64,000 bases of DNA. It comes from Blasia pusilla (Eukaryota). This document shows positions 1-33,770 of this stretch, piece by piece (position 1 is the first letter of the stretch; each line of letters begins with the position of its first letter). The DNA lies in contig CM114271.1 of NCBI GenBank assembly GCA_050084515.1, forward strand, positions 24,180,001 to 24,244,000, in the 5' to 3' direction. The translations under genes were made by a program, and so were the position numbers. Below the pieces are notes generated by a model. That model was not told the DNA's origin. It made no database searches and worked only from the letters and a program-made list of their open reading frames with translations.

Positions 1-25
1 CTCTCTAAATACAAATTATCTGACA

Positions 26-156
26 CCGACGGGTTGAAACCAGGCAATCACAAATCTGAATGCAATCCATCGGACTCCGATGGTTGCAAAATTTAGCTCG
101 TAGCTACCATTCCGACCATCAACTGTGACGACCTATCGGAGTCCGACGGGTTGCAG
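26..156. repeat. Cluster of the 29-bp palindromic repeat in a putative intron
   Basis: tgcaatccatcggactccgatggttgca at 61-88, acctatcggagtccgacgggttgca near 131-155, and a half-site near 26-37. Confidence 0.85.
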
Positions 157-204
157 GAACCCATGAACCTTGCAAAATTTCTTATATTGAGTTTGGATTT
201 GTAG

Positions 205-3200
205 GATTGTATCGGAGGGGAAAGTCACCCACCACTGGATCCAGGATTATGATCGGGTGAAGAAAGTGCTAACGACGAACCTGGTAGAGTACAAGGGGTT
301 CTTGGGCGACGCCCTTGTAAATGAGATGCTGGCAAGGGTGCTCAAATAAAAAAAAAGACTTGGGCAAATAAATTTATTTCCCAAGATGTAGCCGTGACAA
401 TCCTTTGCTGGTCGAAGATACTGGCCGCCAAGAAGAGCGCTGCATTGGAGCTGGAACGGAGGGAGAAAGTGTATGTGTCTGAGCGTGAAAGTTCATCCAA
501 GCTACGGTATCTGCAACTACAAAGTACACGGCAAGCAAGATGCAGCGCTACATCGCCATTCTCAACCCCGAACTTGGCCCCAATTTCTACAAGGAGCTGA
601 AGGCAATAATCAAGCGCCAGCGGAAGAGGGATGAAGATCCGCAAGGTCGGATTGGGGAGAAAGTGTCTCTCGGTCGCGTGCATCGATTTGCCTTGTCTGG
701 AATTAGCGAATTTAGGAGAATCCGACTGATGAAAATTAGTCTCGAGGGCACAGAGGTCCAAAAGAGGGCGGCACACCATCCTCCGGGTGTCTCTGATCCA
801 GTGATTTCCCACTGGCTCCGTGAATGGTCATTCTGGGAGGCGTTGCGGCTTCTCGGGAAGTCCATGCTCGTGGGTCTCCAAGCGGAGCTGAAAAGAATAG
901 AGCCAGTTGCGGAGGAAGCAAACCTGGAGAGTGCTGAAGATTTTGAACTTTGGTTGGATGACATGCGGGACAAGCCCATAAAAAACCCAGGTTTCAAGAC
1001 GATGTTCAAGGATCGCATCCTCCCTCAAGCAGAACTTGACGAAGAAATAGAAGCGAAAAAAAAGGGATTTCGTAGAGAAGAAGGGAGATCTTCACGAGCA
1101 GGCGGCCGATGCATCTCGACTAAGAGCTGCCCAACGCATGGTGTTCAGGTACCTCGTCCATTGTAAGAATGGAGGTAACTGGAAAAAAATACCGGCAGCC
1201 TGCCAATTATGGACTTCTCCGCCTGATGGAGAGACATTTTCCATGTACGACATGGAGATGGCTCAAAGCATGTCCGATTGGGAGGTGGAGAATTGCCCGA
1301 TTTGGCTGGACTTCAACGACCCTGAGGACATAACCGAGAAGGATCTATGCCTGCTCCATGATGCAATGGCCGCAGGTAGGGACAACATCCCCAATTTTGT
1401 GCAGCCTGAAGACTTTTTCGAAGGAGATGGGAGGAGCAAGCCCTCGAGACAACGGAGTTGGTGTCCAAGTTCGTCACTGCCTAGGACAAATCTACACCGG
1501 GTCTCAAAGCCAAGGCGAGGAGATCGAAGAATTCCGAGGCCGAGTCTTCCCAAAGAGAGGCTGAAAATTCAAGGTGAGAGCCGAAATCGTCCGGGCGAGC
1601 GGGGAGAGAGGTTCGGACCAGGTCCTCCGCAAAAAAAACTCCACCAGAGTCTGAGGTCATAGAGACCCCAACAAGCCGACCGCAGACTCGGGAGAAGCGG
1701 AAGTGATAGGCGCCAGGGTTGTCCCAGGGAGCAGACCAGGATGTGGAATACACTCCATCATCCTTGGGAAGACATAGAGAAACAACGACCCGGACAAGCG
1801 TCATCATTCACTGCACGAATCTTCTGGATGAGCTGAAAAGTTTCAGTTCCCAAGCGTCGACACCCGCCATTGAGAAATTGACAACGTTGGGACGGAAGCT
1901 TCAACAAAACGGGCACGCTCCCTGGACGGTCCATGGGGATGTCGAAGAGGTGGCAGTGGATCTCCTCGTCGCTGATTTGCCCTCCGGGTTGCACTTATGG
2001 GACAAGAATCCGTCCGACGGGGTCCCAGACTGGAATGTGCCTCTTTGTTATGACGAGATCACGCTCCTGTTTTCCTTTGCAGACGCTTATCTCAGTGACA
2101 GGGGCTGTTTCTTAGTTTTGATTGGAGGGAGTAAGGACGAGCTCTTCATCCTCCTGTGCGTCAAGAGGTCGCTGAAGTGGAGGACGGCGCAATTGTGGGT
2201 CATCAAGAACGAGTACCACTCCGATCCGCGACGAGTCAAATTCGGGTAAGGGCTCTTAATTTGTATCCAAATTTTCTTTCTCCGATGGGTTGCATCTCTG
2301 CATGCAACTCGTTGGATTGTTTGAGTTGGAGACTACGATGGTGCAATCCGTCTGAAAGCGACGGGTTGCAAATTTACCGCAAGTCTCCATTGGGTGAATG
2401 CAACCCGTCGGAACATTACGGGTTGCAAGTGCTCATGATTTTTCCTTGTGTTTCTGGAATGATGCAACCCGTCTGAAAGCAACGGGTTGCTCTAAGCCAG
2501 CAACCTATCGCCTTCTGACGGGTTGCTTATGGACAAAAAAATCACTAACACTTGTAAAACAACCCGTCGGACTCCGACAGGTTGCTCCAATGTTAGGATT
2601 ATAATGCGAAGTTCTTTGCGGACGTGTTGCACATTAGGTCACCATATTGAGAGTAGACTAGTGGTCAAGTAGCTCTTTCTTGTTGCTGACATTGTTTCCA
2701 ACGTGCTTCTTTACAGATGGACCACTCCTATGTTTACTGCTTTGTTCGGCCCGAGCACAACTTCCAGGTGTTTAAGATCCTGGATCCTACGGATCCATGC
2801 TCCGATGGGTATAGCTTAGATAGTTTATACAATTTCCCCCCCTCCCCCTCCCTTGGGAATTTACATGCAAGACGGTACCCCCTTACTTGGAGGAAGGGAA
2901 AAGTCGCCAGCCCTGATGCAAACACTCATCGAGCTCTGCTCAAGGTCGGGTGACTTGGTGTGCGACTTAGTGGGCCTTTCAAGGGCGAGTATTAGAGGGG
3001 CCTGGCAGAGTGGCAGGAACATTCTTTGCCTTGAGGGAAGGGAGCAACTGTTTGACCTTTGCAAGGAGGCAAAGGCAGATTACGACAGGCTAGTTGGGGC
3101 GTACAACTCTCCTCCGAAGCCGAGAGCTCCGGTTCCAGACCCACCATTGGTAGTGACACCATCGTCACTTCCCACGATTCTGAAAATTGGGAGAGCAAGG

Positions 3201-3242
3201 CCGACAGTAATCTTGGAAGAGCTCTCGCACGATGACGAGTGA
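205..3242 (+). pseudogene. Spliced, frameshifted gene with a C-terminal beta-class N4-cytosine/N6-adenine DNA methyltransferase-like domain (N6_N4_Mtase-like)
   Basis: DLLVADLPSG (1959-1988) matches the motif IV pattern DLIxxDPPY and is followed by AYLSDRGCFLV (L-x-x-x-G). EKSPALMQTLIELCSRSGDLVCDLVGLSRASIRGAWQSGRNILCLE (2898-3035) matches QKPxxLxxxLIxxxSxxGDxVLDPFxGSGTTxxAAxxxGRxxIGIE. Acceptor tttgtag at 204; GT-AG intron 2246-2716. Several frameshifts and stops. The N-terminal 205-1660 part was not recognised. Confidence 0.75.
2281..2586. repeat. Array of the 29-bp palindromic repeat inside intron 2246-2716
   Basis: Copies start near 2342, 2399, 2463, 2500 and 2560 (for example caacccgtcggactccgacaggttgc), separated by dissimilar spacers. 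Confidence 0.9.
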
Positions 3243-3313
3243 GTTCAAAGAACTCAAGGACCTAGCTTGACTGCAGCGTTTGGAGTAGGGATTTATTTGA
3301 TGACGAGGCAAAA

Positions 3314-3817
3314 GGATGTAATAAAGGGCAAGATTTTTTCGGATGATGATGATGTTTGTAAAAGTTTGCTGAATATCTTTTTTGGTCTTGTCGAATGTGA
3401 TCGTCTATGTGGTCCAGGCAACTTGTCGGATTCCGACAAGTTGGCTGTGTGAGTGATCGGACTCTTTCGGACTCTTTAGAGGCATTTTGGCCCAAGAAGC
3501 CTAAGACTGGTTTGACAATACTAGGGGAACGAGCAAAAGTGAAGAAGCCCATCACAATGCCTCAGAATTTGGTCTCCTAGGGAAAGAGTCCGATCACTCA
3601 AGCAGCCAACCTGTCGGAATCCGACAGCTTGCCTGGAAATGGTTGAAAAGTTGCAGTGGTCAAAAAGTGAAAAGTTGCAACACGTCGGAATTCGACGGGT
3701 TGCAAAATTGTAATTCTGAGTAGCTAGACGAACACAATCAACAAGTCCAAAAAAAATATTCAAAAAACTTTTACAAACACCATTAGCGGTTGAAAAAATC
3801 TCATCCTTTATTACATC
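3314..3817. repeat. Long imperfect inverted repeat (hairpin 1)
   Basis: 3314-3407 is reverse-complementary to about 3725-3817; 3418-3468 pairs with about 3582-3631; inner stem gaggcatt/aatgcctc (3479-3486/3556-3563). Confidence 0.85.
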
Positions 3818-4134
3818 CGAAGGAATCTCGGAAATATACATTTGATCTAGTCTATGATTTCTTCAGCCTCGTCATCTACCAATTTTCTCCTAACTATCCT
3901 AGGTTCCTGTACAAAAGGAATGTCCTGGGATACAAGTGGCTCCTCTGGCCGATTGTAGACGGGGATCGAAAATGTTGGCGAGTTCGAGAGCCTTGGCCCC
4001 CCCTTATGTACACCATAACGGTCCCATGTAACCTGATTTGAGTCCCATCGCCTTCCTCGGCAGTATATCTTGTACGCTCTGCAATGTGACACCCATCCAA
4101 TATCAATATGTGCTCCGTCCTTGGAAATACCATG

Positions 4135-4280
4135 ATGGCAATCCCACAGGTAGTAGGAATCCAACATGTCTTAGAGAAGAGAAGAAGCCTACGCCTTGTT
4201 TGACAATACTAGGGGAAGGTGCCAAAGTGAAGAAGCTTCTCTAAGACGTGTTGGATTCCTATAACCTCTCGGATTGCCAT
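4135..4280. repeat. 45-bp inverted repeat (hairpin 2) enclosing a 56-bp loop homologous to the loop of hairpin 1
   Basis: atggcaatcccacaggtagtaggaatccaacatgtcttagagaag (4135-4179) versus cttctctaagacgtgttggattcctataacctctcggattgccat (4236-4280), about 5 mismatches. Confidence 0.9.
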
Positions 4281-4966
4281 TTGGATTCCCAAACAGTTGA
4301 ATTTTTGTGGGTGTAGGGTGGAATGGAATCAATTCTCAAAATCTTTCCTTTGTTATGGTGAGCTTGCTTGCAAGACGTGCAAGCCATCTGATTCTGACGG
4401 GTTGCAAGAGTTGGAACCTGTAAAATTCCGACGGGTTGGGAGGGGTGCAGCTTATCAGTTTATCAGATTTAGGATCTGAATGAAGGGACATCAGTTTCTC
4501 TTTACTCCAGACAGCTAACAATCTTTTGGTTTAATTATCGTCTCCTGTGTTCACATTTCACAAAGTTGGTCTTTATTTGAACCTTTCATTGAGATGAGAT
4601 TGCTACTTCTAGTCACATTATTTGCCAATGGTCCTCCAAAAAAAATAGCCCTGGGCACAACTTACTGTAGACTGAGACAGGAAATGTGAAGGAACTTAGG
4701 CTCACAAGGAGAGTGATGAAAAAATGTTTGTAGTCGTCTTATGATGTCTACTTGTTTTTCGCCCCTTGAAAAAAGGAGGTTTCTTAAGGCCCGAATGTGG
4801 ACCACTACCTACTCTCTTCTAAAGATTTCATGAATTTGAAAGCAAACAAAAATTTCAAATATGTCAAAAAGTTTTGAAGAGAGGAGGCGGATTTGGCCTT
4901 TTTTTTTTAAGAGAGACTCTTCTCTCTTCCTCTCTTCCTCTCTCCTGCCAGAATACTAGCCCCCCC

Positions 4967-5530
4967 CAATCGGTCGAAGACTGACGGGTTGCACCCTTCC
5001 CTCGTCTTGGGATAACAAGGCGGGGTACCTGCGCAACTCGTTGGAGGCCGACGGGTTGCACACTTCCTTCATGTAAGCAGTACAAGGCGAGGCACTTGCG
5101 CAACCCGTCAGAGGCCGACGGGTTGCACGCTTCGCTCATCTTGGGGTAATACGCAAGGTACCTGGGCAACTCGTCGGTTACAGATTGGTTGCACTCTTTT
5201 CTATCCCTCGGGTAACAATGCGACAACGGATAGTTCCGAGACAACCTCTTGCAATCCGATGGGTCACAAGGTCTACCCTGAGTTGGACAATCCCGTAATA
5301 GTCCCCAACGATTAGTTACCTTAGCAAATGCAAGCGATGTTTCGTGTTTGATGCTAGCAAAATCGTCTCAAAAGACCATTGGTCAGCATGAAGAAGGTAC
5401 CAACCCAATGGACTCTGACGGGTCCCAATTTGCATTGAGACAAGGAAACAAAAAACGGAATTGGGTGCTTCGCGACCCACGTCTCTAATTCCCAAATTCT
5501 GCAACCCATCGGACTTCGACAGGTTGCAAC
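4967..5530. repeat. Palindrome array upstream of the transposase, about 67-bp period
   Basis: gacgggttgcac at 4983, 5050 and 5117, a variant at 5183, and further copies near 5400 and 5500. Confidence 0.85.
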
Positions 5531-5702
5531 AGAATTGAATCAATCATGTCAGAAAATCTCACATACCAAACTTCATCTTGTTAGTCAACTTCTGTCTCGA
5601 GAATTTGAGTCCCTATTCACTATAAATTGAACATCCTCATTCTCATTCTCATTCCCATACCCATTCTTATTCTCTATCTCCTCCCGCTGGAATCTTCTAG
5701 GA

Positions 5703-8700
5703 ATGGATAATTATGTGAAGCTCATTTGTGGAAATCATCTAGCGACCCTTCCTCAATCAGAAATCGTTCGACCGCAAGTTCGTGAGTCTTTCATACCAAT
5801 GGATGAAAACTCTGTTCGATTTCTTCTCCAAATTGGAACCATCTTTGTGTCCAAGGATGTAAGGGTGGACGGTACGGAGGATATAATAGGTGAGACAATC
5901 TAGCCAGTGATTGCAGACCGTAAAGTATGGAATCTCCTACTTATAGCAAATGGTCAATAGAAAGTTTACGGCTTGCCTCTGAATTCCTCTGTTTCCCAAG
6001 TAGACGGTCGAGAATTTCCTAGTGCACCGAGCTCTACGTTTGCAACTCCTAGCTCAGTGAACCCGGCATCGACTCTAACTTCACATGTTCGTTACAATGT
6101 TGTACTTCCTAAGGAAATTCCCGATGTTGTCAACCTCAGTGGATTGCTCAGACACCAACCGGGCCCTCTGTCCGCCTACTCATTCCTCTTGCGGATATCA
6201 GGCAATAGTTTGCTATCGTCTATGGCCTGGAAAATGTTCAAGCACATTCTTGTTGACGAGGTGCCACCCACATACGATGGTAATTGTATTTTTGAGTTCC
6301 TCCACTTGCTGCTCCTGCTCAAAAGAAAGATGGAGGACGCTTGAAGGGTATGGACAGAAAGTCTGATTGTCATCGATGGTGCAGGTTTCAACAGACTAGT
6401 GCTTCAATTCCATATGGTCCTTGGATTGTCTCCCGCCGCGAGTGCGTTGGAGCCTTGGAGCATAGAAGTCCAGCATGCCCGTATCTAGAATGCAACGGGC
6501 GAGTCAATATGTCGCAATTCCCCCCCAAGAATGCAAAAACTCCATATGGGGTCGGTGCCACCATACCGCCGGGAGGCCATCGATGTCCTCATTGTCAAGC
6601 ATCCACTTTATGCTTTGGAGCGTGTCCTGCATACATATTTTTCATTGTCCATGACTTGGGCTCCACGTCATAGTACACAAGGCTGGCAGTTCATGTTGGC
6701 TCCCACACTCATCATGTGACCGATGCAATTCAGAGACACATCAAGGAGGATGTGGCAAAGAAAGTGGCCGAGGTCTTCAGAAACTCTCCGGGTTCAAAGC
6801 CCGGAGTGATCAAGCTAACAACTGCATCACAAATTTGTGAACAATTGCTTGGAATCCTTGGACACGGCGAGATCACGGCTGCTGAGGAGAAACAACTCTG
6901 GGAAAATCTCGTATTTCTCGCTGATCTTGAATGATTCCGGAATTGGCTAAGTGAAATACGGGTAGTAGATGGAAAGATGGCCGAAATGGATGCCATTTCC
7001 AGAATCAAGGCCAATTCTAGATTTCCATTCTTTCAGAGATGGCAGTTCATGGGCCAGGGAGGTGAAAGATCGAGGGCCTATGTCTTCAAAATGTCAACAA
7101 CAGGTCCGTCGAGTGGCCTCGATCTTATAGATCGAGTGAGGGAAGGCAAAGATCTTTACGGCAGCTGGGTAAGCTTTGATATTTGCTATAGAGTGATGAA
7201 CGGATGGTTGAAAATGGGTGCTCACATTTATGACTATGTGGAGAAGGGACTCAAAACTATATTTGTCTGTGAAGTAAAAGCAGAAGACGTTGGCAATGTG
7301 AAGATGTGCTGGTTACTCTTATTGGAGGTCGTGAAGGAAAACAAAAGGCCACTTGCGGAAATTTATGTTAGATGCTTTCCATTGGCAACAGTCTGTGACC
7401 CGCTACACCAAATTTTGCAATAAGGAGAATAAGAGGACGGAGCATGTCACTCTACTCCAACGTTGCAAGGACAGCAAAACCTTGAAACAGGCCATGGAAT
7501 GCCAAGAAGAAATTCATGGGTGGTGGAGGAAACATGCGATTGAGGGGAAGTACAAAGAGTTATGCTCTTGGTTGAGTTGGTGGACTGTACGAATGAGACA
7601 ATGGGGAAACTTCATGCGGGAGGTGTGTTCACTAATTTGTCTCGCTGAATTTTTTTTGAAGAGTTGCAGCTAAAGGTGAGAAGCGTGGGCACTATAGGGA
7701 TTTCAAATCGAAGAAACCAAGCAAGTTGTCGCATGCGACAGGTTGCCTCCCTCAGTGTTCAACCCGTTACTTACCGACGGGTTTCTTGAGTGTGCAACCT
7801 GTTGGAACCTGACGGGTTGCAAGTTGCACGGCCAAATTTACTTGCAACCCGTCGGAATCAGACGGGTTGATGGGTTGCTTGAGGGGGCAACCAGTCGGAA
7901 AAAGACTGGTTGCAAGTCCCATGGCCAAATTTACTTGCAACCGGTCAAAATCTGACGGGTTGCAAGTCGCATGGCCAAATCTACTTGCAACCTGTCAAAA
8001 TCCGACGGGTTGCAAGTCGCATGGCCAAATTTACTTGCAACCCGTCAAAATCCGACGGGTTGCACTAGGTGGTTCTTGGGTGTTGCAACACGTCGGAAAC
8101 CAACGCGTTACAGACTCATTCATGGGATGCCTCCGACTTGCAACCCGTGTGATTTTGACAGGTAGCTTTTTTCTTTGCTCATAGAGCTATTTTGGTTCCC
8201 TTCTTACAGTGCCGTTGTTGCAGGGATTGAACATTCATGAAAAAGCCCTGTGCCCCAACACAAATGGAGCAGAAATTGTTCATTCCTCCTAGAGGTCATC
8301 ACAAACATGCCAAAGAATTTCACTTATGGAGGCATGCCAACAAGACTAGGCAAGAGCAATGCTATAGTCTGCAACATCCCATATCTTCCTCACAAAAGGC
8401 ATAACAAAAAGAAGGGGGCCTTCGATCTACGAGCTCTATGTCAGGGCGGCTGTGAGATCCGGTGATGAGAAACTCTATGTGGAAGCCTTCAATCAGTGCG
8501 TAGCAGGAACTCCTCTCGAGCAAGACGTACACATTGGTGGGGATATTCGTGGGCGCATTTCAAGACGTCCCATACAGATGGTCATAGAGCAGTCCGAGCG
8601 AGACTAGTGGAGACCAGATAAGTATCTTGACTTCAGGCAAGTGAAGAGGCAGCATCGAGGAAAGAATCCGGTGATTGATTTGGATGAGGAAATTATGCCG

Positions 8701-8731
8701 CACAGATATTTGGGAACCCCGGATTTCTCCC
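5703..8731 (+). pseudogene. Mutator-family (MULE) DDE transposase with an N-terminal GCM/WRKY-like zinc domain, 5' part
   Basis: GMDRKSDCHRW...RRECVG...CP...N...CPHC...CPA...RLAVHVGSHTH (about 6345-6715, GCM-like). WVSFD (first D); ICEVKAED-like segment; FMLD/AFHWQQS (second D and CxxH region, partly deleted); WLSWW. After GT-AG intron 7623-8209 the frame reads CPNTNGAEIVHSS (catalytic E at 8273). Multiple stops and frameshifts. Confidence 0.8.
7726..8165. repeat. Palindrome array in the transposase intron, including three 50-bp tandem units at 7911-8064
   Basis: Unit tgcaagtcgcatggccaaatttacttgcaacccgtcaaaatccgacgggt starts at 7911, 7961 and 8011. Confidence 0.9.
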
Positions 8732-9921
8732 TGTAATATACAAGTGTTTCTAGTTTACAGTCGTTTTAGTGAGTTCGATCCCCAAGAGGATCATTGTTGG
8801 ATGAAAAGAGAGGGTAAAGTGATTATTATGTTGTAAAAGTAGTGTGGTTGATTATGTAATTCAAATGTAGTATTCCAGCAACATCTTCCGATCCTTCTCA
8901 GTACCAATGTTTTCTTCTTCAATTCTCTCTAGTGGAATTTAAATCACGCTCAGGCAAATTGTTCTCTCGACATCTAGGAACCTCACAGAGATCTCAACAA
9001 GAAGGTTGGCTTCTCCTACTTTCGGAACTCAATCCGTCTTGGCAGGCTACTCTCTGTCAAACAGATTTCATACAACTCCATGTTGATTATTCCATTGATG
9101 AGAAAGGTTTGTCTGATTTCACTCTTCACGCTGCAAACCCAAAAAGACTATCCAAACGTAAGCATCACACATCAGAATGAATGAATGAGTGGTTTATTAT
9201 TCCATCAAGAATGGGAAGACTTCAAAGTGTATACAAGCTCGAGAGGGTACTACTCTCTTGCTCGGACCATTCCTACAGCATAAGGACTTCATGAGCGAAT
9301 GATGATTGTAGCTTCTGTCATACTTCTTAAATATTCTCTGAAGTAGGAGCGTTTCCAAGATCCGAAGCGTTCTTGATGAAGTTGATGTCTCTTCAATATT
9401 TATAACTACCTAGATCTATGGTGTGCTTTCCTTTTCCTATGATCCCTATGAATCCGTGGTAAAAAACTGTTCTAACTACCAATTTGATACAAAGGGTCGC
9501 GCTCTTTCCTAGTCTAACTGTTTTAACTATGTGCCGGTTCGAATCACAATCATACTGAGCTTCGCTGCGTTGGATTTCTTGAGGACGAAGCTCTTCATTC
9601 TTCGTTCTCTTTTCAGGTGCTTGGTGCTTCGTGCTTCGCTCTTCGTGCTTCGCATAAGAGCAAAGTACTCACTTCTCTTCTTCTGCAGGCTTCGTTAAGC
9701 TTCGCGTTGGTCCTTTAGACTTCGTTACTGCATTTGCTTCTCCTCTAAGGCAAATCCTTGATCTTCCATCTCTCTGCCTTGTCCTAGGAGCTTCGTGATT
9801 CACTCTAATCTTACTCTTTCTTCTCCATAATAGTATATAATAATCAAAACCATAATGTACAAGAGTCTTTGTTAAATAAAAAGATAAATTTCTTCCGAAG
9901 TACAAAATTGTGGGTATCACA
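8732..9921 (-). repeat. 3' LTR of element A
   Basis: tgtaata...tatcaca, adjacent to the polypurine tract (gagggaggggg on the minus strand). Confidence 0.97.
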
Positions 9922-13372: not shown

Positions 13373-16300
13373 TCAGTCCGCATAAGGTTCGGGCTCATAA
13401 TAAAAGCGCACATGCATGCCATTGACTCGAGTGGGCAGGGATTCTCCTTGTAAGGTCTCTAACTGTAGGGATCCATTATCATAGATGGCCAATACCCGGT
13501 AGGGTCCCATCCAATTTAATTTTAATTTTCCGGGGAACTTGAGCCGCCGGTTGTCATACAATAGCACTAAGTCTCCAACGCTGATAGATTGTGGCCGGAG
13601 ATGTCGATCGTAACGTTGTTTACGTTCTTTTTGCACCTGGGCTGTCCGGCATAACGCGAGCATGCGTGCCTCTTCCAACGCAACCAAGGTCTCATTCGTG
13701 TGTTCGAGAACTTCGCCCACGGCCTCCGTTCTTGTTCCCTCCAATACCCGATAAGTGGGCAAAGCCCATTGAATAGGTGTTAAGGGATGCACGCCATAAG
13801 CCAAGAAGAACGGGGTGTACTTTGTAGTAACCTTCTCAGCTGTTCGGTACGCCCATAATGCCACGGCAATTTTCGTGTCCCAATCATAGGAATATGTTAC
13901 CGTCAATCGATTCAATATTCGGAAAATAAGGCCGTTAGATTTTTCCGTCAACCCGTTGGCTTTAGGGTTGTAGGGGTTGGTTTTCTGATGCTTAATGAGA
14001 AAGTGGGAAGTGAGAGACTCAATAGTCTGGTTTAAGAAGTGCGTGCCACGGTCACTTACTAGTTCCAACGGACAGCCATACCGCGTGATAATCATCTCAT
14101 ATAAAAACTTGGCCACTGCTTCACTGTCATCTTTTCGCATGGCTACCGCTTCGACCATCTTAGTACAATAGTCAGTGGCGATAAGAATATACTTCCGCCG
14201 GGTTTGGCGAGTGGTAGGGGAGATAGGGCCCACGAAGTCAATGCCCCATTTTTCAAAAGGAGCTAGGGGCATGATGGGGACCAAAGGCCACCGCGTAGTT
14301 GCCGTGGGTCGACGTGCTCTTTGACAGGCATCACAACTCCAAATAAAATTACCTACGTCTTTGTACATAGTTGGCCACCAATAACGTGCGGCCAAAATTT
14401 TCTTAACGGTATTTTTTACCGCATAGTGTCCACCAGAATCAGCCATATGCAGGGCTCTGATGACCTGGGGGACTTCTTCTGCTTCCAAGCATCGTCGATA
14501 CTCTTCATCAGCACCTAATTTGAATAGGACCCCTTGACATATCTCATATGGTCCTATCCGATGTAAGAAAACTGCGCGTTCTTCCGCTGTCATCGGGGTA
14601 GGAAGTCGCAGAATCATTAGAAAACGCAGAATATCATCATAAAAAGACTAGCTCAACCGATCCTCTGTTATCTGGAACGGGTCTTCATCGAGAAAGGTAT
14701 CATCGACGGATTGGGTGAGGTCCGCGTTTGTCATCCTCAACCGGGAAAGAAAATCTGCATTGGTATGCACCTTGCCGGCACGGGTAACAACATTGAATGT
14801 GAATTCTTGTAGCAACAAGATCCACCGTGCAATATGCCCTGACAGGTCTTCTTTCACCATTAAGGGTCTGAGTGCAAAATGATCAACATGGAAGATAAAT
14901 TTTTACCCTAATAAATAGTGTCGGAACTTTTTACATGAGAAGACCATGCCTAACGCCTCTCGTTCGGTAGTTGTATATTTCTGCTCCGCTGCTGATAGTT
15001 GTCGGCCGGCGTAGTAAATCGGAAAGTCATGTTTGTTCTTATCCAATTGGCTGAGTACTACTCCAATGGCAAATGAGGATGTGTCCACATATACGTGGAA
15101 GGGTTTGGTCCAATCGGGGGACCGAAGTACAGGAGCTTTTTGCAATGCGTCTTTTAAGGTGTGAAATGCCGCTTAGCACATTGGTGTCCACTCCCATTCG
15201 GTGGTCTTTTTAAGTAACGCAGTAAGAGCTCCCGCTTCTACCGCATAATCTTTAATAAATCTTCGATAGTACCCGACGTGTCCCAAGAATCCTCTCAATT
15301 CCCGGAGGTTGGTGGGTGGTTCCAATGCGACGATAATATCCACCTTGGCCTTGTCGACCTCAATTCCCTGAACCGACACTCTGTGTCCCAACAGAATTCC
15401 TTGTTTCATAGCAATATACGATTTGTCCGGATGGAGGGACAATTGCACTTCGCGACAACGCGCGAGTGTTAATTCTAACTTTTCCAGATGTTCGGCCTCT
15501 GTGCTGAAGATACAAAAATCGTCCAAAAAGATTTCCACGAACTTCCTCAAATACTCCTGGAAAATGGAGATCATCATCCGTTGGAAAGTAGCTAGGGCAT
15601 TGCATAACCCAAAGGGCATTACGCAATATGCGAACGTTCCCCAATACGTGGTGAACGTGGTGAGGGGACAATCCTTTTCTCGTATGGATACCTGGTTATA
15701 ACCCGAGTATCCGTCCAAGAAAGTATAACGCTCGTGCCCGACAACTTTATCCAAAATACTGTCAGGATGGTGGTCTTTTAAGGTTGCAGCATTCAGTTTC
15801 CAATAATCTTGGCACACTCGGATTTTCCCCGTTTGTTTTTTAGGTACAATTACGATGGGCGACACCCACTCGCTGCTTAACACAGAATAAATTATTCCTG
15901 CCTCGAGACGCTGGTCGATCTTGTCCTTGACTAACAATGAATACTTTGGATTGAGTCGATACTGTCGCATTCCCACCGGGAGTGCCCCCTCTTTAAGGTC
16001 AATTCGGTGTTCACCATACCGCGCGGGAATGCTTGTCATTTCATCCATGGAGTATGCAAAGACATCCAAATACTCAAACAATAGTTTTTTATACTTCATA
16101 AGTTTGGTGGGAGACAAATCCGCCGAAAGGCGTAGAGACTTCTGATCTGAAATAACGACCTGGACGTAGTCCTGATCCTGAACCATGTTCTCTGTTAACT
16201 AAAATGTGCTATGACCCAGCTTCTCTTCCTCTCGGGTTGACTTTGGCTTGGGGGGTACCGACTCCTCGTCTATTTCGTAACATTCTAAATAATACACCTG

Positions 16301-17875: not shown

Positions 17876-19097
17876 TGTGATACCCACAATTTTGTACTTT
17901 GGAAGAAATATATCTTTTTATTGAACAAAGACTCTTGTACATTATGGTTTGGATTATTATATGCAATTATGGAGAAGAACGAGTAAGATTCAAGTGAATC
18001 ACCAAGCTCCTAAGACAAGGCAGAGAGATGGAAGATCAAGGATTTGCCTTAGAGGAGAGTCAAAAGCCGTAACGAAGTATAAAGGATCAACGCGAAGCTT
18101 AGCGAAGCTCAACGAAGCTCTGTACACGAAGTACTTCGCTCTTAAACGAAGCACGAAGAGCGAAGAACGAAGCACGAAGAGCGAAGAACGAAGAACGAAG
18201 AACGAAGAACGAAGCACGAAGCACGAAGAGAATGAAGAATGAAGAGCCAGACTCGGAAATTCAGCGCAGTGGCTTCAAAGATAATTGTGATTCGAACCGG
18301 CACATAGTTAAAACAGTTAGCCTAGGAAGAAGCGCAACCCTTTGTATCAGATAGACAGTTAGGACAATTTTGTTCTCCGGATTCCTAGAGACCATCAGAA
18401 AAGGAACGCACACCATAGATCCAGGTAGTTACAGATATTGAAGAGACACCAACTTCATCAAGAACGCTTCGGATCTTAGAAACGCTCCTACTCTTGAGAA
18501 TATTTAAGAAACAGGACGAAGCTATCATTATCATTCGCTCATGAAGTCCTTATCTTTGTAGGAATGGTCGAGCAAGAGAGTTGTACCCTCTCGAGCTTGT
18601 ATATACTTTGAAGTCTTCCCATTCTTGATGGAGTAGTAAAGCAATCATTCATTCATTCCGATGTGCGATGCTTATGTATGAGTATTCTTTTTGGTCTCAG
18701 TGAGTGAAGAGTGAATCAAAGCGAACCTTTCTCATCAATGGAATAATCAACATAGAGTTGTATGAAATCTGTTTTGAGAGTAACCTGCCAAGACGGATTA
18801 AGTTCCGAAAGTAGGAGAAGCCAACTTTATTCTTGAGATCTCTGTGAGGTTCCGAGATGTCGAGAGAACAATTTGCCTGAGCGTACTTTAAATTCCACTC
18901 GAGAGAATTGAAGAAGAAAACATAGGTACTAAGAAGGATCGGAAGATGTTACTGAAATACTACATTTAAATCACATAATCAACCACACTACTTTTACAAC
19001 ATAATAATCACTTTATCCTCTCTTTTCATCCAACAATGATCCTCTTGGGGATCGAACTCTACAAATGACTGTAAATAAGAAACACTTGGACATAACA
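17876..19097 (+). repeat. 5' LTR of element B
   Basis: tgtgatacc...cataaca; reverse complement of the A LTRs. Confidence 0.95.
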
Positions 19098-22500: not shown

Positions 22501-25500
22501 CTCTACGCCTTTCGGCGGATTTGTCTCCCACCACAATTATGAAGTATAAAAGACTACTGTTTGAGTATTTGGATGTCTTTGCATACTCCATGGATGAAAT
22601 GACAGGCATTCCCGCACGGTATGGTGAACACCGAATTGATCTTAAAGAAGGGGCGGTTGTAATGTCTAAGTGTTTCTTATTTACAGTCAATTGTAGAGTT
22701 CGATCCCCAAGAGGATCATTGTTGGATGAAAAGAGAGTATAAGGTGATGATTATGTTGTAAAAGTGTAATTGATTATGTAATTTAATTGTAGTATTCCAG
22801 TATCAGCTTCCGATCCTTCTTAGTACCTATGTTTTCTTCTTCAATTCTCTCGAGTGGAGTTTAAAGGACGCTCAGGCAATTTGTTCTCTCATCATCTCGG
22901 AACCTCACAGAGACCTCAAGAATAAAGCTGGCTTCTCCTACTTTCGGAACTCAACGTAAGGCGGAGTTACTCTCACAAACAGATTTCATACAACTTTATA
23001 TTGATTATTCCATTGATGAGAAAGGTTCACTGATTCACTCTTCACTCGTGAGACTCCTAAAAAAAGAATGTTGAGACATAAGCATTGCACATCAGAATGA
23101 ATGAATGAATGTTTTACTACTCCATCAAGAATTGGAAGACTTCAAAGTATCTACAAGCTCGAGAGGGTACAACTCTCTTGCTCGGACCATTCCTACAGCA
23201 TAAGGACGTCATGAGCGAATGATGATAATAGCTTATGTCCTGTTTCTTAAATATTCTCGAGAGTAGGATCGTTTCTATGATCCGAAGCGTTCTTGCTGAA
23301 GGGTGTGTCTTTTCAATATGTGTAACTACCTAGATCTATGGTTCTCTTATCTTTTCCTACGATCCCTATGAATCCGCGGTACAAAACTGTCCTAACTACC
23401 AATTTGATACAAAGGGTCGCGCCCTTTCCTAGTCTCATTCTGTAAACTATGTGTCATTTCGAATCTCAATCATCTTTGAAGCCTTCATTGCGCTAAATTT
23501 CGGAGGAGGACTAAGTTCTTCTTTCTTCTTCGTGCTTCGTGCTTCGCTGAAGAGCAAAGTACTTCGTATATAGAGCTTCGTTGAGCTTCGTTAGACTTTG
23601 TTAAGCTTCGCTGAGCTTCGCTAGACTTTGTTAAGCTTCGCTGAGCTTCGCGTTGAGCCTTTATACTTCTTTACAGCTTTTGACTCTCCTCTAAGGCAAA
23701 TCCTTGATCTTCATCTCTCTGCCTTGTCTTAGGAGCTTGGTGATTCACTTATTCTTCTTCATAATAATAGATAATCATAATCAAAATCATAATATACAAG
23801 AGTCTTCGTTGAATAAAATGATATATTCTTCAAGATTACAAAATTGTGGGTATCACAGCGGTCCCGATGCGAATGCGACAATATCGACTGAATCCAAAGT
23901 ACTCATTGTTAGTCAAGGACGAGATCGACCAGCGTCTCGAGGCAGGAATAATCTATCCGGTGTTAAGCAGCGAGTGGGTGTCGCCTATCGTAATTGTACC
24001 TAAAAAACAATCGGGCAAAATCCGAGTGTGCCAGGACTATCGGAAAGTAAATGCTGCCACCTTAAAAGACCACCATCCTCTACCTTTCACTGACAGTATT
24101 TTGGATAAAGTGGCCGGGCACAAGCGTTATACTTTCTTGGACGGATATTCGGGGTACAACCAGGTATCCATACGAGAAAAGGATCGTCCCCTCACCACGT
24201 TCACTACGGACTGGGGAACTTTCGCATATCGCGTAATGCCTTTTGGGTTGTGCAATGCCCCAGCTACTTTCCAACGGATGATGATCTCCATCTTCCAGGA
24301 GTATCTGAGGAAGTTCGTGGAAATCTTTTTGGACGATTTTTGTATCTTCAGCACAGAGGCCGAACATCTGGAAAAGTTAGAGTTAACACTCGCACGCTGT
24401 CGCGAAGTGCATTTGTCCCTTCATCCGGACAAATGGTATATTGCTATGAAACAAGGAATTCTATTGGGACACCGAGTGTCGGCGCAAGGAATTGAGGTCG
24501 ACAAGGCCAAGGTGGATATTATCGTCGCATTGGAACCACCTACTAATCTCCGGGAATTGAGAGGATTCTTGGGACATGTCGAGTACTATCGACGGTTTAT
24601 TAAAGATTACGCAGTAAAAGCGGGAGCTCTTACTGCATTACTTAAGAAGACCACCGAATGGGAGTGGACACCAGCGTGCCAAGTGGCATTTGACACCTTA
24701 AAAGACGCATTGCAAAAAGCTCCTGTACTTCGGTCCCCCGATTGGACCAAACCCTTCCACGTATATGTGGACACATCCTCATTTTCCATTGGAGTAGTGC
24801 TCAGCCAATTGGATGAGCACAAACATGATTTTCCGATTTACTCGCCGCCGATTACTATCGGCAATGTGAGCGAGAAATATACAACTACCGAACGAGAGGC
24901 GTTAGGCATGGTCTTCTCGTGTAAAAAGTTCCGACACTATTTATTAGGGTACGAATTTGTCTTCATGTGGATCATTTTGCACTCAGACCCTTAATGGTGA
25001 AAGCCGACCTGTGAGGACGCATTGCACGGTGGATCTTGTTGCTACAAGAATTCACATTCGATGTTGTGACCCGTGCTGGCAAGGTGCATACCAATGCCGA
25101 TTTTCTTTCCCAGTTGAGGATGACAAACGCGGACCTCACCCAATCCGTCGATGATACCTTTCCCTATGAAGACCTGTTCCAGATAACAGAAGATCGGTTG
25201 AGCCAGTCTTTTTATGAGGATATTCTTCGTTTTCTAATGACTCTGCGACTTCCTGCCCCGATGAGAGCGGAAGAACGCGCAGTTTTCTTACATTGGATAG
25301 GCCCATATGAGATCTGTCAAGAGATCCTATTCAAATTAGGTGCTAATGAAGAGCATCGAAGATGCTTGGAAGCCGAAGAAGTTCCCCAGGTCATCAGAGC
25401 CCTGCATATGGCTGATTCGGGTGGACACTATGCGGTAAAAAATACCGTTAAGAAAATTTTGGCCGCACGTTATTGGTGGCCAACTATGTACAAAGATGTA

Positions 25501-26464
25501 GGTAATTTTATTCGGAGTTGTGATGCCTGTCAAAGAGCAGGTCGACCCACGGCGACTACGCGGTGGCCTTTGGTCCCCATTATGCCCTTAGCTCCTTTTG
25601 AAAAATGGGGCATTGACTTCGTGGGCCCTATCTCCCCGGCCACTCGCCAAAACCGGCGGAAGTATATTCTTATCGCCACTGACTATTGCACTAAGATGGT
25701 CGAAGCGGTAGCCACGCGAAAAGATGACAGTGAAGCAGTGGTTAAGTTTTTATACGAGATGATTATCACACGTTATGGCTGTGCGTTGGAACTAGTAAGT
25801 GACCGTGGTACGCACTTCTTGAACCAGACTATTGAGTCTCTCACTTCCCACTTTCTCATTAAGCATCGGAAAACCACTCCCTACAACCCTAAAGCCAACG
25901 GGTTGACAGAAAAATCTAACGGCCTCATTTGCCGAATATTGAATCGATTAACGGTAACATATTCATATGATTGGGACACGAAAATTTCCGCGGCATTATG
26001 GGCGTACCGAACAGTTGAGAAGGTTACTACAAAATACACCCCGTTCTTCCTGACTTATGGCGTGCATCCCTTAACACCTATTCAATGGGCTTTGCCCTTA
26101 TCGGTATTGAGGGAACAAGAACGGAGGTCAGCGAGTTATCGAACACAGGAATGAGACCCTGGTGGCGTTGGAAGAGGCACGCATGCTCGCATTACGCCGG
26201 ACAGCCCAGGTGCAAAAAGAACGTAAAAAATGTTACGATCGACATCTCCGGCCACAATCTATCAGTGTTGGAGACTTAGTGCTATTGTATGATAACCGGC
26301 GACTAAAGTTCCCCGGAAAATTAAAATTAAATTGGATGGGACCCTACCGGGTATTGGCCATCTATGATAATGGATCCCTACAGTTAGAAACCTTACAGGG
26401 AGAATCCCTGCCCACTCGAGTCAATGGCATGCATGTGCGCCGGTATTATGAGCCCAAACCTTAG
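19565..26464 (+). pseudogene. Element B gag-pol, interrupted by solo LTR C
   Basis: Retrotransposon gag (KRASQWY...KETLREYTQRF), three CCHC knuckles, protease, RT (IFLDDF), RNase H, integrase with GPY; stops at 20609, 21152, 22470 and frameshifts. Confidence 0.95.
22658..23857 (-). mobile_element. Element C: solo LTR of the A/B family inside the RT-proximal region of B
   Basis: tgtaatg...tatcaca; perfect TSD GCGGT (22653-22657, 23858-23862); pol reads LKEGAV|PMRMRQY across the insertion. Confidence 0.96.
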
Positions 26465-28777: not shown

Positions 28778-30246
28778 TGTGATACCCACAATTTTGTACT
28801 TTGGAAGAAATGTATCTTTTTATTGAACAAAGACTCTTGTACATTATGGTTTGGATTATTATATGCAATTATGGAGAAGAACAAGTAAGATTCAAGTGAA
28901 TCACAAAGCTCCTAAGACAAGGCAGAGAGATGGAAGATCAAGGATTTGCCTTAGAGGAGAATCAAAAGCCGTGAACGCAGTATAAAGGATCAACGCAAAG
29001 CTTAGCGAAGCTCAACAAAGCTCAGACATAAGTACTTTGCTCTTAAATGAAATTTAAAGAGCGAAGCCTAACGTAAGAGCGAAGAGCTACCGAGCGAAAG
29101 AAGAGTACCTAAGAGCGGCTAGCCGAAGAAGCGAAGAAGAGCGAAGCACAAAAGCAAAGAATGAAGAATGAAGAGACTGAAGAGCACGAGAGGCCGACAT
29201 AAGAGCACATAGTTAAAGCAGTTAGCCTAGGAAGAGCGATAGAAAGTTAGGACAATTTTGTTCTCCTAAGAGCGAAGAGCGAAGCACGAAGAGTGAAGAA
29301 CGAAGCACGAAGAGCGAAGAACGGAATATTTAAGGCAAAACTAAGAGCGAAGCATGAAAGCACGACAGAAAGAGAATGAAGAATGAAGAGCCAGAACTCG
29401 GAAATTCAGCAAAGTGGCTTCAAAGATAATTGTGATTCGAACAGGCACATAGTTAAAACAGTTAGCCTAGGAAGAAGCGCAACCCTTTGTATCAGATAGA
29501 CAGTTAGGACAATTTTGTTCTCCGGATTCCTAGAGACCATCGGAAAAGAAACGCACAAAGATAGATCCGGTAATTCTGAGATATTGAAGAGACACCAACT
29601 TCATCAAGAACGCTTCGGATCTTAGAAACGCTCCTACTCTCGAGAATATTTAAGAAACAGGACAGAAGCTATCATTATCATTCGCTCATGAAGTCCTTAT
29701 GCTGTAGGAATGGTCCGAGCAAGAGAATTGTACCCTCTCGAGCTTGTATATACTTTGAAGTCTTCCCATTCTTGATGGAGTAGTAAAGCAATCATTCATT
29801 CATTCTGATGTGCGATGCTTATGTATGAGTATTCTTTTTGGGTCTGCAGAGTGAAGAGTGAATCAGGAGAACCTTTCTCATCAATGGAATAATCAACATA
29901 GAGTTGTATGAAATCTGTTTGACAGAGAGTAACCTGCCAAGACGGATTAAGTTCCGAAAGTAGGAGAAGCCAACTTTATTCTTGAGATCTCTGTGAGGTT
30001 CCGAGATGTCGAGAGAACAATTTTCCTGAGCGTACTTTAAATTCCACTCGAGAGAATTGAAGAAGAAAACATAGGTACTAAGAAGGATCGGAAGATATTA
30101 CTGAAATACTACATTTAAATCACATAATCAACCACACTACTTTTACAACATAATAATCACTTTATCCTCTCTTTTCATCCAACAATGATCCTCTTGGGGA
30201 TCAAACTCTACAAATGACTGTGAATAAGAAACACTTGGACATTACA
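28778..30246 (+). repeat. 3' LTR of element B (about 250 bp longer than its 5' LTR)
   Basis: tgtgatacc...cattaca; expanded, scrambled GAAGAGC-rich section at about 29040-29400. Confidence 0.93.
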
Positions 30247-31865: not shown

Positions 31866-33063
31866 TGTAATATACAAGTGTTTCTAGTTTACAGTCGTTT
31901 TAGTGAGTTCGATCCCCAAGAGGATCATTGTTGGATGAAAAGAGAGGGTAAAGTGATTATTATGTTGTAAAAGTAGTGTGGTTGATTATGTAATTCAAAT
32001 GTAGTATTCCAGCAACATCTTCCGATCCTTCTCAGTACCAATGTTTTCTTCTTCAATTCTCTCTAGTGGAATTTAAATCACGCTCAGGCAAATTGTTCTC
32101 TCGACATCTAGGAACCTCACAGAGATCTCAACAAGAAGGTTGGCTTCTCCTACTTTCGGAACTCAATCCGTCTTGGCAGGCTACTCTCTGTCAAACAGAT
32201 TTCATACAACTCCATGTTGATTATTCCATTGATGAGAAAGGTTTGTCGATTTCACTCTTCATTTGCAAACCCAAAAAGACTATCCAAACGTAAGCATCAC
32301 ACATCTGAATGAATGAATGAGTGGTTTATTATTCCATCAAGAATGGGAAGACTTCAAAGTGTATACAAGCTTGAGAGGGTACTACTCTCTTGCTTGGACC
32401 ATTCCTACAGCATAAGGACTTCATGAGCGAATGATGATTGTAGCTTCTGTCATACTTCTTAAATATTCTCTGAAGTAGGAGCGTTTCCAAGATCCGAAGT
32501 GTTCTTGATGAAGTTGATGTCTCTTCAATATTTATAACTACCTAGATCTATGGTGTGCTTTCCTTTTCCTATGATCCCTATGAATCCGTGGTAAAAAACT
32601 GTTCTAACTACCAATTTGATACAAAGGGTCACGCTCTTTCCTAGTCTAACTGTTTTAACTATGTGCCGGTTCGAATCACAATCATACTGAGCTTCGCTGC
32701 GTTGGATTTCTTGAGGACAAAGCTCTTCATTCTTAGTTCTCTTTTCAGGTGCTTGGTGCTTGGTGCTTTGCTCTTCGTGTTTCGCATAAGAGCAAAGTAC
32801 TCACTTCTCTTCTTCTGCAGGCTTCGTTAAGCTTCCGTAAGCTTCGCGTTGGTCCTTTAGACTTCGTTACTGTATTTGCTTCTCCTCTAAGGCAAATCCT
32901 TGATCTTCCATCTCTCTGCCTTGTCCTAGGAGCTTCGTGATTCACTTTAATCTTACTCTTTCTTCTCCATAATAGTATATAATAATCAAAACCATAATGT
33001 ACAAGAGTCTTTGTTAAATAAAAAGATAAATTTCTTCCAAAGTACAAAATTGTGGGTATCACA
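31866..33063 (-). repeat. 5' LTR of element A
   Basis: Near-identical to 8732-9921; PBS at 31829-31848 after a 17-nt spacer. Confidence 0.97.
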
Positions 33064-33325
33064 CTCCCAAATCCGTGATGGATTAACTTCTCCAAAATCA
33101 GTGAATGTTTTATTTCAAAAGCCCTCCGTTGGTGGAAGTTCGCAACATCTGGTCGTGGGGATGGTTCAACAATATGGGATTTCGGTCATGGAGGTGGATT
33201 GCAACCTTAAACGCTGGCATATATTTCGGAGCAACCCTGGACGTGGATCCACTTGCAGGGCGGGATCTGGTGGCATTAGGAGAGCATTCGGCACTTTCCA
33301 AAATAGGAATTGTACAAGGACTTGA
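33064..33325 (+). pseudogene. 3' continuation of the MULE transposase
   Basis: Removing A and one TSD gives GTPDFS-QIRDGLTS...VMEVDCNLKRWHIFR...CRAG in frame. Confidence 0.75.
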
Positions 33326-33770
33326 CGACCACTGCCTCGATTTTGGGGACTTAAAACCTTTGACCGTTTAGCCTAGGGCAAATGATAGATTTTTTCCATA
33401 CCTTGGATGGAAATAGTGATTGGTTCCACACTTATGATTCCACTGATTTTTCAATTTTTAAAATTTTGTGCAATTTGCAACTCGTCGGACTTAGAGGGGT
33501 TGCCAAAATGTGGAAGAGGAAAAAAAAACTGTGGGAGTGCTTAAGAATTGAGCAGAAAAGTGCAAAAAAATTCACACAAAAATTTTCCTCTCTTCAACCC
33601 AACGGAAACTCTCTTCAAATCACAGGAAAATCTCTTTAAAAAATATCTCTTTTGGTTGAAGGTAGTTTTCTCTCTCCTCTCTCCTCTCTTCCTCTCTTCC
33701 TCTCCTCTTACCGCACCTCATATTGAGCAACATCCTCTTTCATTTTGGGCCAGAAGAACCTCTTAGATAG

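Follow-up and report, generated by a model that had tools for sequence, protein, structure and literature searches.

A decayed, multi-copy DNA transposon of Blasia pusilla that appears to carry a degenerate methyltransferase-like gene beside a probable transposase

We analysed a 64,000-nucleotide stretch of the Blasia pusilla genome (GenBank assembly GCA_050084515.1, contig CM114271.1, positions 24,180,001 to 24,244,000 of the forward strand), here called the window and numbered from its first letter, and found in it a plant DNA transposon from a multi-copy family, represented by one copy that is old and mutated. On balance, we lean towards explaining the element as a decayed transposon with private palindromes and two genes, of which gene 1 would be a degenerate accessory gene related to the PF01555 DNA methyltransferases, and gene 2 the probable transposase. 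An amino-methyltransferase-like gene in a multi-copy plant DNA transposon is apparently undescribed so far; full-text literature searches, which did not extend to supplements, turned up no plant DNA transposon described as having an amino-methyltransferase-like gene of bacterial or phage type.

To judge from its conservation, gene 1 is a real, intron-bearing accessory gene of roughly 795 codons, extending from about 386 to 3239, with the following parts (ORF, open reading frame; SAM, S-adenosylmethionine):

386-2246, plus strand: gene 1 exon 1, an N-terminal region of no known family and then the half with motif IV, broken by frame changes (delimited by tblastn of Riccia proteins and by the donor GT at 2247)
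1974-1985, plus strand: D-L-P-S at the position of the catalytic motif IV (DPPY) of beta-class amino-methyltransferases (placed by hhalign; homologues have DLPK, DLPT and DVPE)
2247-2716, plus strand: proposed gene 1 intron, with GT at 2247 and AG at 2715-2716, full of palindrome copies
2717-3242, plus strand: second exon of gene 1; the frame shifts in a C-run near 2836-2850 (ORFs 2690-2953 and 2820-3242 overlap in different frames), and the stop codon is at 3240
2889-3053, plus strand: SAM-binding block (motif X plus motif I region) of PF01555 type (Pfam, PDB, ESM Atlas, phage tblastn and hhalign)

The interval at 2247-2716 is a canonical GT...AG interval between the two motif blocks of the spliced gene proposed in the initial annotation of this DNA, which was made from the sequence alone. 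When the ORF 1710-2246, which holds the catalytic half, was compared with 1.84 billion representative proteins in a full HMMER search, four relatives emerged, none of them named as a methyltransferase: a Riccia fluitans protein of 305 residues (E 1.9e-8), a Riccia sorocarpa protein of 488 residues (E 2.5e-8) and a pair of ENA clusters, at E 1.9e-4 and 8.5e-4. One of these clusters comprises 5 members, found on 5 contigs. By tblastn, the R. sorocarpa protein (P0003) is colinear with the window at 534-893 (frame 3, E 9e-15), 1123-1437 (frame 1, E 3e-9) and 1908-2213 (frame 3, E 2e-12), and the N-terminus of the R. fluitans protein (P0002) aligns weakly at 388-495, relatives and window being colinear over about 1.7 kb. 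Since these alignments begin upstream of 1719, where the gene had been thought to start, gene 1 is longer than first proposed. Both Riccia gene models, from the loci of KAL2653794.1 and KAL3687003.1, stop just beyond the exon 1 boundary, which fits a conserved intron and does not imply a second exon in Riccia. Across the aligned family the D and P of motif IV and nine other columns are invariant, and the methyltransferase-like domain is fused behind about 450 residues of the N-terminal region. A PDB search with P0003 gave unrelated weak rows only.

The C-terminal block of gene 1 is, by several sequence comparisons, related to the PF01555 DNA methyltransferases. The region 2898-3035 encodes E-K-S-P-A-L-M-Q-T-L-I-E-L...G-D-L-V-C-D...G-R-N-I-L-C-L-E, and both this block, of the pattern E-K-x-P...GDxVxD...GR...E, and the DLPS at 1974-1985 are read in the frames originally given for them. 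As gene 1 is split by its intron and by frame changes, Pfam was scanned piecewise and not with the whole protein. PF01555, the profile against which the initial annotation had proposed to compare the gene, matched the C-terminal block in the piece 2820-3242 with E 0.075, over profile positions 165-219 of 221, and left the catalytic half unmatched; its 13.4 bits fall short of the Pfam cut-off of 26.7. The best PDB sequence match was the beta-class enzyme M.RsrI over the QKP/motif I segment (E 0.8). Of 30 ESM Atlas hits, 26 fell in a set carrying PF01555 only, and the three other sets shown (4 hits) carry PF01555 too (top score 0.94, 188 of 256 features, recognition 2811). Among 2.3 Gb of phage genomes tblastn returned 166 records (best E 4e-3), and for each of the 15 that were listed the annotation of the gene hit is DNA methyltransferase. 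In each of the three inspected phage genes the match lies near the C-terminal end; the three enzymes are themselves PF01555 members (E 1e-24 to 1e-39). Identity between the SAM block and phage enzymes is 35-40% over 52-68 residues. Alignment of the block with these three enzymes by hhalign gave 96.3% probability over 55 columns, a figure that is inflated because the enzymes had been picked as the best matches to that block.

For the catalytic half the same comparison is free of this bias, because the phage enzymes had been chosen via the other half of the domain. Using the six-sequence family alignment against the three phage enzymes, hhalign, in a weak match, placed V-D-L-L-V-A-D-L-P-S-G on V-D-C-I-I-T-D-P-P-Y-F, with DLPS exactly on DPPY (score 20.8, P 0.021). 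The score was reached by 2 of 200 column-shuffled controls (mean 12.2, sd 2.5), and the reversed alignment scored 15.7. The domain order is permuted as in the same enzymes, the DLPS half aligning with profile columns 17-104 and the SAM block with 153-207. This is the arrangement of M.RsrI, CcrM and the phage orphan methylases, in which the half with motif IV comes first and the SAM block with motifs X and I last. A low-quality AlphaFold model of the catalytic half (pLDDT 59.2), built with the six sequences, has the strand-helix-strand-helix-strand order expected after motif IV. From the sequence comparisons taken together, the whole C-terminal part of gene 1 is probably a diverged PF01555-type amino-methyltransferase domain in beta (circularly permuted) order. 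Of the prokaryotic-type methyltransferase proposed at the outset, the C-terminal PF01555-type half and an upstream half in register with it are retained, while the active writer of N4-methylcytosine (4mC) or N6-methyladenine (6mA) is not, motif IV being degenerate in all six sequences.

Several results weigh against this assignment, besides the Pfam score below the cut-off and the inflated hhalign probability. The catalytic half alone matches no Pfam or NCBIfam family, and the Riccia homologues gave no PF01555 match; PDB searches with this half, one with the single sequence and one with a profile, came back without a match; tblastn against phage DNA returned no methyltransferase for it (5 unrelated records, E at least 0.3); and the first part of exon 2 has no similarity to PF01555. 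The AlphaFold model is poor and gave no fold match at E 0.001 or better, with a best Foldseek E of 0.36, CcrM at rank 7 (E 0.5) and a best VIA-wide Z of 4.8. A word-index protein search with the catalytic half yielded 76 candidates, none of which was scored. The methyltransferase likeness might then be due to chance, gene 1 being a lineage-specific protein unrelated to PF01555: no single database-wide statistic is strong, the Pfam and PDB values included, and neither the sequence searches nor the fold model of the catalytic half speak for the family. We nevertheless consider this very improbable, because four different methods agree on one family and one segment, and because the other half follows in the expected order and register, with only 2 in 200 shuffles doing as well. 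The start of exon 2 had also been matched to motif VIII by eye; on comparison with PF01555 this found no support and was dropped.

Motif IV bears on what such a diverged domain could still do. Its canonical form is (D/N/S)-P-P-(Y/F/W), and in amino-methyltransferases base-flipping catalysis fails or is severely impaired when the aromatic residue is missing. All three phage enzymes have DPPY or DPPF. In the alignment of six sequences, made up of the window and five clusters at 90% identity (four at 50%) from at least two other species, the motif reads DLPS in the window and DLPT, DLPK, DVPE, DVPE and DVPE in the others, so that D and P are invariant and the second proline and the aromatic residue are missing in all six. 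As D-[L/V]-P-x is found in all relatives, DLPS is a trait of the family and not a recent decay, and activity is doubtful. It had been noted that the TCC codon of DLPS is one step from TAC; this is arithmetically true, but its reading as decay is contradicted by the K, T and E of the homologues. The family-wide degeneration of motif IV favours a pseudo-enzyme. The gene 1 product is probably such a pseudo-enzyme, at most an enzyme of non-canonical type, in which a DNA- and/or SAM-binding scaffold survives, and it more likely binds DNA than methylates it. In sum, its domain seems to be derived from PF01555 enzymes but to lack two of their defining features, the canonical motif IV and a score above the Pfam cut-off.

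Intact copies of gene 1 might still encode an active N4-cytosine or N6-adenine DNA methyltransferase, which would write a mark other than 5-methylcytosine (5mC), perhaps on the palindromes, with the DLPS of the window being due to decay after all. This would agree with the beta order of the PF01555-type domain and with the clear decay of the window copy, which differs from most copies at many sites. Low-level transcription is seen for a related copy of the SAM-block region (7 RNA reads at 2902), and palindromic sites are typical targets of such enzymes. However, the change in motif IV is old and common to the six sequences rather than a private mutation. The glycine loop of motif I, with the consensus F-x-G-x-G, reads V-G-L-S-R in the window, the one decayed copy that was read, compared with F-G-G-S-G or F-A-G-S-C in the three phage enzymes. 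The known eukaryotic 4mC writers, moreover, keep SPPY-type motifs, TSPPY in MpDN4MT1. An active enzyme is therefore unlikely in our judgement, and we retain the pseudo-enzyme as the preferred reading.

The two genes are embedded in copies of one palindrome, GCAACCCGTCGGA-N-TCCGACGGGTTGC (27 nt, perfect), which has 20 matches at 12 sites with at most 3 mismatches, compared with 0.00 expected. Its 11-nt half-site has 32 matches in the window (0.41 expected), of which 31 lie within 27-8095, one at 33477 and none in the remaining ~55 kb. All 32 are in non-coding DNA of the element, namely upstream of gene 1, in both proposed introns, in the spacer between the genes and downstream of gene 2. The private palindrome that the initial annotation reported from the introns of both genes is thus present there and in all other non-coding parts of the element. 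The stretches concerned, apart from the gene 1 intron listed above, include:

1-385, plus strand: non-coding DNA ahead of gene 1, in which the palindrome copies are decayed (the half-site matches 27-37 and 144-154)
3243-5702, no strand: spacer with a nested foldback (3314-3818), a hairpin (4135-4280) and a palindrome array
4983-5141: tandem array of the palindrome in the spacer, 67 bp x 2.4 copies
7811-8064: tandem array of the palindrome in the proposed gene 2 intron, 50 bp x 5.2 copies

Several CpGs lie within the palindrome; the CpG observed/expected ratio is 0.57-0.88 across the parts of the element and does not discriminate among them. The CcrM-type site GANTC was considered as the centre of the palindrome, but only some copies have it, and it was dropped as a coincidence. 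Six palindrome loci on metagenome contigs, each with a single hairpin (GC 0.44-0.66) in mostly bacterial-looking DNA, were judged to be chance hairpins; relatives of neither gene were present at these six loci (best E 0.15).

About 1% of a whole-genome Illumina run with the same species label was used to estimate the size and state of the family. On positions 1-9000 it placed 11,858 reads, 153 of them at least 99% alike, 3,473 at 95-99% and 8,232 at 90-95%, with all 30 bins covered. The element is multi-copy, with, as a rough figure, tens of copies at 93% or more if the 99% class represents the window locus; such reads show copy number and not dispersal as such. At many sites almost every read disagrees with the window, chiefly by transitions, and the window copy is a mutated, decayed member of its family. 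After 2215, for example, 50 of 65 reads have an extra C, with which exon 1 ends in Y-P-L-R-S-A-T-S-Q-I-R and resembles P-M-R-S-A-T-K-Q-F-K of the R. sorocarpa protein, and after 6298 an extra G is found in 227 of 248. At 7367 and 7371, 303 and 430 reads, respectively, continue into other sequence, which indicates that a stretch of gene 2 has been deleted from the window copy. The similar decay that had been ascribed to the two genes is evident, as both are broken, gene 1 by several frame changes and gene 2 by stops at 6671, 6932, 8290 and 8605. In two RNA runs, 62 and 77 reads matched the region, none of them with a likeness of 99% or above; there is low-level transcription of other members of the family. 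No splice junction was seen among the RNA matches listed. Two air-metagenome runs shared 0.05-0.07 of the words from 300-8700, from which we conclude nothing.

Gene 2 starts 2.46 kb downstream of gene 1 on the same strand, in agreement with the distance of about 2.5 kb first given, and we infer that both form one mobile unit. Two features of the reads weigh against this: the reads sum to a depth of about 60-180 across gene 1 and of 100-560 across gene 2, a roughly threefold difference, and this depth falls to 15-32 at 5101-5700 between them. Gene 1 might instead lie in a separate element of the same palindrome family, or be a host gene invaded by palindromes, beside a transposase element. At 4573, 165 reads diverge, which suggests a repeat boundary in the spacer, and the spacer contains foldback repeats of its own. 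Furthermore, annotation treats each Riccia homologue as an ordinary single gene, and at 90% identity each forms a cluster by itself. We consider separate genes fairly unlikely, however, as one palindrome occurs throughout the non-coding DNA of both and nowhere in the remaining ~55 kb; both are co-oriented, multi-copy and similarly diverged in the reads; and reads and contigs join the palindrome arrays of the two regions (e.g., 3680 to 7998), as expected of deletion derivatives of a single unit.

The foldback repeats of the spacer begin just past the gene 1 stop with 94-nt arms (3314-3407 and 3725-3818) around 56-nt arms (3413-3468 and 3582-3637), followed by a second hairpin with 45-nt arms (4135-4179 and 4236-4280). 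Both hairpins share a 55-nt loop sequence (3494-3548 and 4182-4236, 89%). At 3901-4200 the genomic depth is high, and opposite-strand joints occur in many reads at these hairpins, which could be inserts resembling miniature inverted-repeat transposable elements or small-RNA hairpins. The highest contig depth of the region is at 4801-5100, and RNA reads break at 4928 and 4964. A CT-rich stretch of CTCTTCCT repeats occurs both upstream of gene 2 (4917-4943) and in the tail of the element (33679-33704), with 96% identity over 26 nt.

Gene 2 (5703-8731 plus 33069-33325) is probably a transposase, and with some reserve we assign it to the Mutator superfamily. It consists of:

5703-7621, plus strand: gene 2 5' exons, putative transposase, interrupted in frame by stops at 6671 and 6932; compared with most other copies, internal sequence is missing at 7367-7371
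7622-8224, plus strand: proposed gene 2 intron, with the 50-bp palindrome array inside
8225-8731, plus strand: gene 2 3' exons, with stops at 8290 and 8605, cut at 8731 by a nest of long terminal repeat (LTR) retroelements
33069-33325, plus strand: last ORF of gene 2, resumed in frame beyond the LTR nest for a further 85 codons, with a stop at 33323-33325

One of 12 near-length candidates, P0010, a 156-residue fragment from a Logan assembly, is 44% identical to a piece of gene 2 (E 1e-24) and aligns across the stop at 6932 with 41% identity. In a word-index search against longer proteins the piece drew 193 candidates, none of which was scored. The assignment to Mutator follows landmarks found by eye: F-Q-R, a candidate first catalytic D in S-F-D-I-C-Y-R, and then E...W. 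What we take to be the second D was seen by eye only, in loose read ends at the deletion of the window copy; D-A-F-H would fit the (C/D)xxH signature that follows it, and N-G-A-E comes after the intron. A C...C...H-x-H pattern at 6440-6720 resembles fingers of the WRKY-GCM1 type. A low-confidence model of gene 2 has a strand-strand-strand-helix-strand-helix order that suits an RNase H-like core.

The label 'MULE transposase' given in the initial annotation gained no support from Pfam or NCBIfam, and this heads the points that weigh against a Mutator transposase. Eight gene 2 pieces and P0010 matched no MULE, FAR1/WRKY-GCM1 or SWIM Pfam profile at E up to 10 and no NCBIfam family, which, given how short and broken the pieces are, is weak evidence against Mutator. 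The candidate first catalytic D is replaced by N in P0010, and the AlphaFold model was too poor for a fold search (pLDDT 42.8). In the ESM Atlas, 6935-7420 lies nearest to hypothetical proteins of Mucoromycota and phages, 15-19% of them with the domain AEP_C962R, which is unexplained for a DDE transposase; the top score is 0.95, but recognition, at 2129, is below the mark of 2300. A PDB search with a gene 2 piece returned unrelated weak rows only. The ESM Atlas hits might point to a primase-like (AEP) replication protein in a virus-like or self-replicating element, which would then carry a PF01555 methyltransferase as many phages and giant viruses do: 27 of 30 hits are in hypothetical clusters with 15-19% PF23162 (AEP_C962R), one more is in a DNA primase AEP cluster, and the nearest relatives of the SAM block are phage enzymes. 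Yet the AEP domain is found on under a fifth of the cluster members, and tblastn against the phage genomes, which are rich in primases, gave a single unrelated hit (E 0.7), so that the primase lead is itself unsupported. The aligned block of the window and P0010 shares no acidic DxD motif, the motif of such primases. The Mutator-like landmarks FQR, D and E...W, the D-A-F-H after the second D in other copies and the RNase H-like order of the model also speak against it. We regard a primase as quite improbable and keep to a probable transposase.

In an element of this layout the palindrome arrays may be its own recognition sites for one of its two proteins, and the element-specific palindrome is an obvious candidate target for the gene 1 product. 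The methyltransferase-like protein might bind these CpG-containing repeats and so shield the element from host silencing, or mark it. The nearest functional counterpart is VANC of the Mutator-like VANDAL elements of Arabidopsis, where a transposon-encoded accessory protein acts on motifs that are often tandemly repeated in the element and removes DNA methylation (PMC5735166). Both systems would combine a DNA transposon that has an accessory gene beside its transposase with short element-specific motifs repeated in tandem in non-coding DNA, whereas the accessory protein of the window has a methyltransferase-like domain and its motif is a 27-nt palindrome; the likeness drawn here is one of layout. 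A sequence-reading, catalytically impaired protein derived from a methyltransferase would suit a VANC-like role, and the palindrome itself bears several CpGs.

Among PF01555 enzymes gene 1 would be unusual not only in its D-[L/V]-P-x motif and the degenerate glycine loop of the window copy, but also in its intron, its position in a eukaryotic repeat, its long N-terminal fusion and its low Pfam score. Inactive relatives of amino-methyltransferases are known as binding subunits or from mobile elements, as exemplified by METTL14 and the methyltransferase-like domain of DIRS1 (PMC4738411). They resemble gene 1 in combining an amino-methyltransferase fold and disrupted catalytic motifs with a place in a mobile element or a non-catalytic, nucleic-acid-binding function. 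They differ in that the DIRS1 domain belongs to a PCIF1-like group and forms part of a retrotransposon polyprotein, with RNA as its presumed ligand, and METTL14 is a host gene of the MT-A70 clade (PMC4738411).

The initial annotation had also suggested that such elements might be a source of the DN4MT1-type enzymes of plants. N4CMT of bdelloid rotifers is reportedly a domesticated 4mC writer with an SPPY-type motif. The 4mC writers of Marchantia, MpDN4MT1a/b, carry TSPPY (bioRxiv 10.1101/2021.02.12.428880). Gene 1 shares with them a prokaryote-type amino-methyltransferase domain in a eukaryote, and its nearest relatives, from Riccia, are likewise liverwort proteins. However, these enzymes are active, single or tandem host genes with an SPPY-type motif, whereas the gene 1 family is repeated and has no SPPY. 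Gene 1 is therefore not a writer of the DN4MT1 or N4CMT type, being set apart by motif IV and not by direct sequence comparison. With TSPPY in those enzymes, and with only four relatives among 1.84 billion proteins, none named as a methyltransferase, the suggested source is not supported.

Transposons with DNA-modifying enzymes, or mimics of them, are of interest for how mobile DNA fights host silencing and for the origins of host epigenetic enzymes. If intact copies were active, elements of this family would be a mobile reservoir of 4mC/6mA writers in a plant lineage that has a domesticated sperm 4mC writer. It is even conceivable, but improbable, that bryophyte DNA transposons carry a sequence-specific epigenetic counter-measure, a phage-derived protein of methyltransferase type that acts on the arrays of CpG palindromes by writing 4mC on the CpG cytosines, or 6mA, or by occupying the sites and so blocks host 5mC silencing. 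The family-wide loss of the catalytic motif tempers such claims and makes a DNA-binding pseudo-enzyme likelier than a new DNA mark.

The element spans at least 9.4 kb (1-8731 plus 33069 to ~33700), interrupted by foreign DNA, and neither its own termini nor its target-site duplications were seen within the window, which weighs against the reading of the two genes as one unit. Its ends had been placed at 205 and 8731. As palindrome copies occur at 27-154, position 205 is not the left end, which must lie outside the window, and 8731 is the insertion point of the LTR nest. From 8732 onward runs a 1.2-kb LTR with four further occurrences in the window. The LTRs at 8732-9921 and 31866-33063 are 97.75% identical and co-oriented, and start with TG and end with CA; together with CTCCC on both flanks, this shows that a 24.3-kb LTR-retrotransposon nest (8732-33063) was inserted into the element, which picks up again at 33069. 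The features of the nest and of the tail of the element are:

8727-8731, no strand: left-hand CTCCC of the 5-bp target-site duplication that flanks the LTR-retrotransposon nest (read in the sequence)
8732-9921, 17876-19097 (minus strand), 22658-23857, 29340-30246 (minus strand) and 31866-33063: five copies of the 1.2-kb LTR
13373-14644 (minus strand) and 25015-26151 (plus strand): Integrase_H2C2 and rve domains (profile scan of ORFs)
33064-33068, no strand: CTCCC, right copy of the target-site duplication (read in the sequence)
33326-33730, plus strand: 3' non-coding tail of the element with one decayed palindrome (33477-33503), the right end of the element lying somewhere within

Ten long ORFs from the rest of the window were scanned, and the integrase domains were found in two of them. 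Internal parts of the nest are duplicated, with inverted order. Another retroelement coding region (33731-37056, minus strand) adjoins the tail of the element, with ORFs at 34437-37056 and a strong negative GC skew; two pieces of it were scanned and gave no Pfam match at E 0.001. Further along, 40001-42000 is AT-rich (GC 0.30 vs ~0.45 elsewhere), and an unbroken ORF of 606 codons at 52739-54559 (plus strand) has Radical_SAM (E 6e-25) and HemN_C (E 8e-6) domains; it is a HemN-like, intronless radical-SAM gene in otherwise repeat-rich, plant-like surroundings.

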